Shown here piece after piece: positions 36,068 to 37,172 of a stretch of DNA of 64,000 nt. The translations under genes were made by a program, and so were the position numbers. How positions within the stretch are numbered: position 1 is the first letter of the stretch; the number at the start of each line of letters is the position of its first letter. Below the pieces are notes generated by a model, which had not been told where the DNA came from, made no database searches, and saw only the letters and a program-made list of their open reading frames with translations. The stretch lies in sequence record OR532803.1; one strand, given 5' to 3'. The stretch comes from Klebsiella phage RCIP0009.

Positions 36068-36844
36068 TTACTCTATTGTGAAAGTGAATAAATCAGATTT
36101 GGTTTCAGGTTCAAACTCCATACAAACAACCTCGCATAGTGGTTTAACCCCTTTCCAATCCTCCAGGTAATACCCAGTATCTATACCGCATCCAGGATTC
36201 ATAACAAGGCCAGTTTCATCAAGAAACTTTTTACATTTACTTGATGTTGTGCTGTCATCTTGTCGGAAACAATGGGTTTTCGAATACCGGAAATTTGCAG
36301 ACATTTGAGGGATTATGAAAGTTCCCTGACGCGCGATCTGTGATGCACGTTCGATTACTTTATACTCAAATTCTGCCCCTGTATACTTACCCTTAAAATC
36401 AGAGGTTTTAATTTTACCAAAAGGCGGGTTACTGATCGCCATATCAAACACCTGATTAAATTCAGTTGTTAAGGCGTCTCCATGCACCCAGGAGGCTTCT
36501 GGTACGATACGCTTACCTAACTCATAGTATGTGTGATTTAACTCAACACAGACGATTTCACGCGGCGTATTGTACATCATGTAATGAACCATAGCGAAAG
36601 ATAACCCACCGATACCAGCACACAGGTCAATAACACTTCCACCTGTGCAAGCATCGATTGTGAAATCGCGAGCAAGTCCAATAGGGGTAAAGAACGCCCC
36701 TAATTCGGAATTATTTGTAAACGCGCCTTCATGAAAGTTTTCAATGATGAACAACTTCTCTTCGTAAGTTAGCGCTTTGTCAGAGTGAACCAGATCCATT
36801 ATCTGATTGTGTTTCTTGGTTTCCGCTTTCGTTAACTTTGCCAT
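36068..36844 (-). CDS. gamma-class N6-adenine (amino) DNA methyltransferase; start uncertain
   Basis: Motif X GAFFTP, motif I VIDLCAGIGGLSF and motif IV NPPFGKI in the order X-I-IV. The ORF-track start at 37072 adds about 57 odd hydrophobic residues and would fully overlap the acidic ORF. Candidate ATGs at 36901, 36874 and 36844. Confidence 0.7.
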   Translation of the reverse strand: MAKLTKAETKKHNQIMDLVHSDKALTYEEKLFIIENFHEGAFTNNSELGAFFTPIGLARDFTIDACTGGSVIDLCAGIGGLSFAMVHYMMYNTPREIVCVELNHTYYELGKRIVPEASWVHGDALTTEFNQVFDMAISNPPFGKIKTSDFKGKYTGAEFEYKVIERASQIARQGTFIIPQMSANFRYSKTHCFRQDDSTTSSKCKKFLDETGLVMNPGCGIDTGYYLEDWKGVKPLCEVVCMEFEPETKSDLFTFTIE

Positions 36845-37172
36845 TGTCCCAGCTATACAGTAATGTTGATTCATTTGGGTAGAATTCCCACCCGTCCACA
36901 TATCCGGTTTCCCAGTCAGTAGTTTGTTCAAAACCACAGATCCATTCATATACACCAGGAGGCATTTCGACAGAATCAGGAAGCCCGATATCTTCCGCGC
37001 TGCGTCCACATTCAAAGAATGCATCATGAATGAATGGTCGAGATAATACCGTAACATAACCTTCATCGTCAACAGCTACGATCCAGCGAGAACTGTGAGG
37101 ACTATCGAACTTCGGTTCTTCTTCGTCTGCGTCAGCTTGCATTTCTGCCTTACAAAAATCTAAATTTATCAT
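36780..37172 (-). CDS. strongly acidic aromatic-rich protein (130 aa); candidate DNA-mimic/anti-restriction
   Basis: 28 Asp+Glu against 6 Lys+Arg (net charge about -22) with many W/Y/F; its 3' end overlaps the MTase start region. Confidence 0.5.
   Translation of the reverse strand: MINLDFCKAEMQADADEEEPKFDSPHSSRWIVAVDDEGYVTVLSRPFIHDAFFECGRSAEDIGLPDSVEMPPGVYEWICGFEQTTDWETGYVDGWEFYPNESTLLYSWDNGKVNESGNQETQSDNGSGSL

Follow-up and report, generated by a model that had tools for sequence, protein, structure and literature searches.

An acidic DUF8046 gene overlapping a gamma-order methyltransferase gene in a T4-like Klebsiella phage: probably two independent accessory genes

Klebsiella phage RCIP0009 (sequence record OR532803.1; the window analysed is the whole stretch of 64,000 nucleotides, one strand, 5' to 3') carries on its minus strand a gene for a strongly acidic 130-residue protein whose 3' end overlaps the start of a gene for a methyltransferase, and the question raised by this locus is whether the two genes work as one unit. 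A preliminary description of the DNA had placed the pair between genes 41 and 61, which the flanking gp41-like helicase and gp61-like primase genes bear out, and had proposed a two-pronged anti-restriction module in which a DNA mimic is translationally linked to a protective methyltransferase. The reading favoured here, with a probability of roughly 0.6, is that two independent accessory genes are packed in tandem, head to tail, into the variable region that separates helicase from primase in a T4-like Slopekvirus and that their overlap is a by-product of packing; nothing in the sequence demonstrates an anti-restriction function for either gene. The elements concerned are as follows.

36780-37172, minus strand: acidic DUF8046 gene, 130 amino acids (aa), phrog_4953 / PF26219.
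36068-36844, minus strand: methyltransferase gene, 258 aa, start ATG 36844, phrog_3820.
36780-36844, minus strand: out-of-frame overlap of 65 nucleotides (nt), in which methyltransferase codons 1-22 (MAKLTKAETKKHNQIMDLVHSD) share their DNA with the final 21 codons and the stop codon of the acidic open reading frame (ORF).

The methyltransferase was matched to phrog_3820 ('DNA methyltransferase') with an E-value of 4.1e-129, residues 1-257 aligning to profile positions 1-254 of 255, and the acidic ORF was matched over its full length to phrog_4953 (E-value 3.8e-67). All 96 homologues of the acidic protein carry a precomputed PF26219 label, and UniRef gives the name DUF8046 to its orthologue in RB43, at 84% identity. 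As judged from these matches, both are real, catalogued genes and no chance ORFs, the acidic one a member of DUF8046/PF26219. The phrog_3820 family is large (at least 960 clusters at 90% identity). DUF8046 is small, with 135 clusters among 1.84 billion representatives in an exhaustive profile search, all of them small stand-alone proteins, and is essentially confined to phages; long multi-stretch matches in that search look like composition artefacts and were set aside. The pair is an orphan phage methyltransferase beside a catalogued DUF, both of which are kinds of gene already known.

Loci were collected with a profile of each family, the DUF8046 search being seeded with a 16-sequence alignment. 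The methyltransferase profile retrieved 80 viral loci, of which 10 have DUF8046 within 4 kb; these are the 10 closest (at least 65% identity) and all T4-like; the methyltransferase was present in 9 of the 20 loci found with the DUF8046 profile and absent from 11. DUF8046 occurs without the methyltransferase in Phapecoctavirus ESCO5, Jedunavirus IME346 and Certrevirus CR9, a Cronobacter phage where the next gene downstream encodes a DNA ligase (locus L003, 2426-4293). The methyltransferase without DUF8046 lies between baseplate genes in Krischvirus and Aeromonas phages, and between the repressor gene and the ERF recombinase gene in lambdoid prophages of Pseudomonas aeruginosa, where it looks like a member of an early operon. 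Its neighbours in 70 non-T4 loci show lineage-specific synteny and nothing else. Beyond one T4-like lineage the two genes form no module and are distributed independently, and on this point the proposed two-pronged unit is not supported.

Other features of these loci were recorded. Vequintavirinae-type phages (CR9 and five further loci) have a DNA ligase gene of ~460 aa immediately downstream of DUF8046, another conserved gene context for DUF8046 that does not involve the methyltransferase. In the P. aeruginosa prophages (loci L110-L112, 6001-6837) the methyltransferase homologue has 278 aa and is followed by a gene with a SutA-RBD match and a gene with a weak RMF match, and in many viral contigs of ~30-36 kb, seven of the collected loci among them, the homologue is the last gene before the contig ends. 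Apparent gene splits in Klebsiella phage CPRSB (OM971649), where helicase, DUF8046, methyltransferase and primase are all in short coding sequences, were discounted; this fragmentation by frameshifts across the region probably reflects sequencing or assembly errors.

The extent of the overlap depends on the methyltransferase start, which differs among records (products of 258, 243 and 228 aa). In an alignment of 93 family sequences, down to ~50% identity, the consensus reads MAKLTKxxxKxHxQAxDLVHSDK, with K3, K6, H12, L18, S21 and D22 at 90% or more, and tblastn matches of 47-56% identity, in phages of Aeromonas, Rhizobium, Vibrio and Yersinia and in Krischvirus, begin at query residue 1. Krischvirus G37-3 and Aeromonas AS-sw have an in-frame stop immediately before the equivalent ATG, so no earlier start is possible there. 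In the AlphaFold2 model residues 6-19 form a helix, and the mean predicted local distance difference test (pLDDT) score of residues 1-20 is 82-93. These features favour ATG 36844 and the 258-aa product, with a start inside the acidic ORF as had been described. The maximal ORF from TTG 37072 (36068..37072), already thought implausible, is spurious, because the match to the phrog_3820 profile does not start until residue 78 when the ORF is read from stop to stop. In the Slopekvirus Miro, the RefSeq record (NC_041981) starts the methyltransferase at an internal TTG (228 aa), and many records use Met16 (243 aa); the former call is too short, and so are many of the 243-aa ones. The GenBank record of Miro (KT001919) names the product 'radical SAM protein'.

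With this start, the overlap was found in all 10 T4-like IMG/VR loci with both genes, nine of them with 65 nt and one with 38 nt. Comparison of five distinct overlap sequences gave 42 substitutions; read in the methyltransferase frame these divide into 27 synonymous and 15 non-synonymous changes, whereas in the acidic frame all 42 are non-synonymous. The last ~20 residues of the acidic protein, which the overlap encodes, have pLDDT values below 50 and are not present in DUF8046 members that do not adjoin the methyltransferase; by the model and the substitution counts, this tail is disordered and under no selection. Pectobacterium phage POP12 has a 76-aa gene between the two, and its acidic protein ends at 111 aa. 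No unusual RNA structure was predicted at the junction (z -0.56), and none that masks the methyltransferase start. The acidic stop lies 65 nt inside the methyltransferase gene and is not of the ATGA or TAATG type, in contrast to the ATGA junction between DUF8046 and the membrane-protein gene upstream of it.

Because all 42 substitutions alter the acidic protein, whereas 27 of them leave the methyltransferase unchanged, the overlap looks like a by-product, and the preferred reading is that the acidic ORF simply continues into the strongly constrained 5' end of the methyltransferase gene. It would have arisen in the Slopekvirus/Pseudotevenvirus lineage, where the acidic ORF would read into the conserved methyltransferase sequence up to the first stop codon and so acquire a disordered, unselected tail, as a consequence of gene packing with no designed coupling. 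Translational linkage as a functional design, which the preliminary description had advanced, is supported by neither the tail nor the junction RNA.

The methyltransferase contains motif X GAFFTP (residues 49-54; 36683-36700, minus strand), motif I DLCAGIGG, the loop that binds S-adenosylmethionine (AdoMet; residues 73-80; 36605-36628, minus strand), and the catalytic motif IV NPPF (residues 139-142; 36419-36430, minus strand). The order X-I-IV is that of the gamma class in the scheme of Malone et al. 1995, with ~60 residues from I to IV and no domain inserted between them, and all three motifs, reported earlier in this order, are invariant in the 93 sequences. The window has no other ORF of 150 aa or more with a [DNS]PP[YFW] motif. 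Its Pfam matches are limited to N6_Mtase (20.7 bits against a threshold of 20.4) and MTS (PF05175; 24.5 bits against 23), both marginal. It differs from the T4 Dam type, as had also been stated, in having NPPF and not DPPY, no intervening target-recognition domain (TRD) and no Dam-family match at an E-value of 0.1 or below. By its motifs it is a compact AdoMet-dependent amino-methyltransferase. No discrete TRD was found, including C-terminal to the catalytic region, and a conserved segment of ~55 residues (~180-235), the sole candidate, could serve this role. Members of phrog_3820 are named 'methyltransferase', 'predicted RNA methylase' and, wrongly, 'radical SAM protein'; RB49ORF143w was noted as early as 2006 as a 'methyltransferase small domain' protein (PMC1524935).

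The best profile matches overall are to DNA methyltransferases, namely MADS mad2 (E-value 2.3e-14, residues 34-182) and type II enzymes (1.3e-6). In the comparison list for the protein the values are 18.8 for lmo1582, 17.0 for METTL5, 16.5 for PH1948, 16.1 for M.BseCI, ~15 for HsdM subunits, MmeI and PacII (210-215 aligned residues) and 14.9 for M.TaqI. The first of these, lmo1582 (PDB 2f8l), is a putative class I AdoMet methyltransferase from Listeria with 11% identity and is itself uncharacterised, so that no function was transferred from it. Type I HsdM, M.TaqI and M.BseCI are gamma-class enzymes of the N6_Mtase family (PF02384), from which the phage enzyme differs in having just 258 aa and no HsdS partner gene nearby; M.TaqI has a C-terminal TRD, which the phage enzyme lacks. 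Relative to the ribosomal RNA (rRNA) m6A enzymes METTL5, PH1948 and Ta1320, the phage enzyme has ~50 extra N-terminal residues and the conserved insertion at ~180-235, and the matches are limited to the core Rossmann region. METTL5 requires TRMT112. The mad2 profile (PADLOC PDLC04134) gave the best match among defence-system protein profiles, but the match is restricted to the catalytic core of a 492-position model, and the phage gene is an orphan without defence-system neighbours.

Phages and prophages also carry the orphan adenine methyltransferases Hia5, Hin1523 and Nma1821, thought to be broadly protective against restriction, which are related to Dam, use DPPY as their motif and carry the TRD region centrally (PMC3299994). 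A Hia5-type identity was rejected, since the phage enzyme has NPPF and gamma order and belongs to a different family. In a study of DNA modification in the Slopekviruses KP15 and KP27, Dam and Dcm were the only methylases listed, and no cytosine-modification genes were identified (PMC5219037). Of the earlier assignment as an N6-adenine DNA methyltransferase, the amino-methyltransferase with gamma order stands; that its activity is N6-adenine methylation of DNA is fairly probable on profile similarity. The enzyme, which would use NPPF for catalysis and has no separate TRD, would belong structurally with HsdM, TaqI and METTL5 and would most likely place N6-methyl on adenine in phage DNA, as a third methylation activity beside the Dam and Dcm of Slopekviruses; both this substrate and a protective role are inferred.

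The acidic protein contains 13 D, 15 E, 3 K and 3 R among its 130 residues (net charge -22, isoelectric point 4.05), together with 17 W/Y/F, and the hyper-acidity first noted from this one ORF (28 D/E against 6 K/R) holds across the family, in which the net charge has a median of -20 over ~127 aa (range -28 to -8) and the core a median of -12 over 85 aa. An acidic disordered N-terminus (1-23) is followed by a conserved beta-rich core (~24-108) and the disordered tail (109-130). The AlphaFold2 model, built from 92 sequences, is of moderate confidence (pLDDT 77.7) and shows a four-stranded beta core at 28-106 with disordered ends. Conserved positions include Trp30, Asp35, Pro46, His49, Asp/Glu54, Glu60, Gly73, Tyr75, Trp77, Cys79, Asp86, Glu88, Asp93 and Phe97, of which His49 and Cys79 are invariant or near-invariant and suggest a more specific binding site or a metal site.

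A DUF8046 profile search of all PDB sequences gave nothing better than an E-value of 0.55, Foldseek against viral models returned DUF8046 members only, comparison with solved structures including Ocr, ArdA and Arn revealed no likeness, and a PADLOC search gave no match. Domain fusions were considered as a clue to function and dropped as uninformative, the longer members giving just one DUF551 match and weak zinc-ribbon matches. Literature searches on DUF8046, the PHROG numbers and MADS mad2 yielded nothing usable. Like Ocr (T7 gp0.3), ArdA and Arn, the protein is a small accessory product of phages with densely packed negative charge, but it matches these DNA-mimic anti-restriction proteins in neither sequence nor fold, and whereas Ocr is helical, DUF8046 has the predicted four-stranded beta core with conserved His and Cys. 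Of the likeness drawn previously, then, the carboxylate excess is upheld and homology to the known mimics is not; DUF8046 may mimic DNA, a suggestion that comes from charge alone, and mimics have many different folds. The small, beta-rich, strongly acidic core would most likely bind and block a basic, probably nucleic-acid-binding, protein of host or phage.

Several points weigh against the reading of two independent genes with these roles. The blocking role of DUF8046 is deduced only from how acidic the protein is and from where its gene lies, amid accessory genes; the overlap is kept in every T4-like member examined and could have a regulatory use; the methyltransferase has no recognisable DNA-recognition domain and has an isoelectric point of 5.3; and no experimental data were found for any DUF8046 or phrog_3820 member. 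In addition, the nearest relatives by sequence among solved proteins in the PDB are the METTL5-like archaeal PH1948 (E-value 4e-5) and Ta1320 (8e-5) and rRNA enzymes, and an RNA or protein substrate is therefore possible. If so, the enzyme would act on host rRNA, transfer RNA or a translation factor, in the manner of METTL5, RsmC or PrmC, and would tune host translation instead of protecting phage DNA. This is a serious rival but is considered unlikely, as the strongest profile match is a defence-system DNA methyltransferase (mad2) followed by type II DNA enzymes, HsdM-type enzymes align over ~210 residues, with the GAFFTP motif X and the N-terminal helices included, against ~170 for METTL5, and the genomic positions of the gene are typical for phage DNA methyltransferases.

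An Ocr/ArdA-like mimic translationally coupled to a protective DNA methyltransferase would agree with the acidity kept throughout DUF8046, with the adjoining and overlapping genes in all Slopekvirus and Pseudotevenvirus loci examined, and with a methyltransferase that matches DNA-methyltransferase profiles in a variable accessory region. Such a module is nonetheless quite doubtful given the separation of the genes in most lineages, the unselected tail and absence of RNA structure at the junction, the lack of likeness between DUF8046 and any solved protein, DNA mimics included, and the conserved His49 and Cys79, which are atypical of charge-only mimics; AntiDefenseFinder, which the KlebPhaCol authors ran on Slopekviruses (KlebPhaCol supplement), flagged dam, acb1 and acb2 and nothing else. 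That DUF8046 is instead a partner of the methyltransferase, whether as inhibitor, chaperone or a specificity factor standing in for the missing TRD, would fit the overlap in every T4-like locus examined, and is very improbable when 70 of the 80 methyltransferase loci retain the same architecture and conserved residues with no DUF8046 within 4 kb and 11 of the 20 DUF8046 loci have no methyltransferase. A more far-reaching version would make DUF8046 an acidic anti-defence family with a new type of structure, possibly mimicking DNA with a beta-type fold, and the TRD-less phrog_3820 enzyme a DNA adenine methyltransferase of relaxed specificity, the two having come together in Slopekvirus and Pseudotevenvirus, where they would jointly blunt host restriction; it is speculative and improbable as a whole.

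Across the 2 kb surrounding the pair, identity is 99.6% with Klebsiella phage R4_1 and 98-99% with over 100 further Slopekvirus genomes, Miro among them, which identifies the source as a T4-like Klebsiella Slopekvirus. The order annotated in Miro is gp41-like helicase, small hypothetical genes, 130-aa hypothetical protein, 'DNA methyltransferase', 162-aa protein, DksA-like zinc-finger protein and gp61-like primase, on a single strand throughout. The corresponding features of the window are the following.

38144-39580, minus strand: gp41-like helicase gene, as annotated in Miro.
37474-37491, minus strand: intrinsic-terminator-like hairpin directly upstream of the gene block, parting it from the preceding genes.
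37169-37405, minus strand: upstream membrane protein, 78 aa, first gene of the block, phrog_6843.
35565-36062, minus strand: downstream 165-aa protein, same gene block, phrog_2086.
34221-35246, minus strand: gp61-like primase gene, as annotated in Miro.

The phrog_6843 gene carries a GGAGGA Shine-Dalgarno sequence, and its stop overlaps the DUF8046 start as ATGA (37169-37172). A second small predicted membrane protein, phrog_1374 (37831-38100, minus strand), shares the variable helicase-primase region with it. The phrog_2086 gene starts 5 nt past the methyltransferase stop; its product has no Pfam or NCBIfam match and is labelled 'major capsid protein, T4 gp23/gp24-like' in Miro and several other records, almost certainly an annotation error copied between genomes. 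Directly upstream of the primase gene lies a gene for an 86-aa DksA/TraR-type C4 zinc-finger protein (35249-35509, minus strand; zf-dskA_traR 7e-10; phrog_54). At 35510-35564 most Slopekviruses, including Miro, hold ~206 bp of extra DNA, a region where Miro has a gene for a 72-aa hypothetical protein (FDI06_gp029), flanked by the DksA-like gene and the gene of the 162-aa protein; the extra DNA is missing from the window and from R4_1, 150040 and P-KP2, leaving a spacer of 55 nt. This spacer has a sigma-70-like promoter match of 11/12 (35568-35540, minus strand). The promoter scan returned 12 sites against 8.6 expected, too small an excess to be informative, and one 10/12 match falls within the acidic ORF (37072-37043).

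Slopekviruses serve as therapeutic Klebsiella phages, and because of this use, and because no cytosine-modification genes were found in them (PMC5219037), their escape from restriction matters for host range. In phrog_3820 they would have a widespread third methylase beside the published Dam and Dcm, and if it does prove to have relaxed specificity it would be a useful footprinting reagent like Hia5. DUF8046 is compact, uniformly hyper-acidic and phage-only, with no known fold relative, and is therefore a reasonable, if unproven, candidate for screens for inhibitors of host DNA-binding defences.
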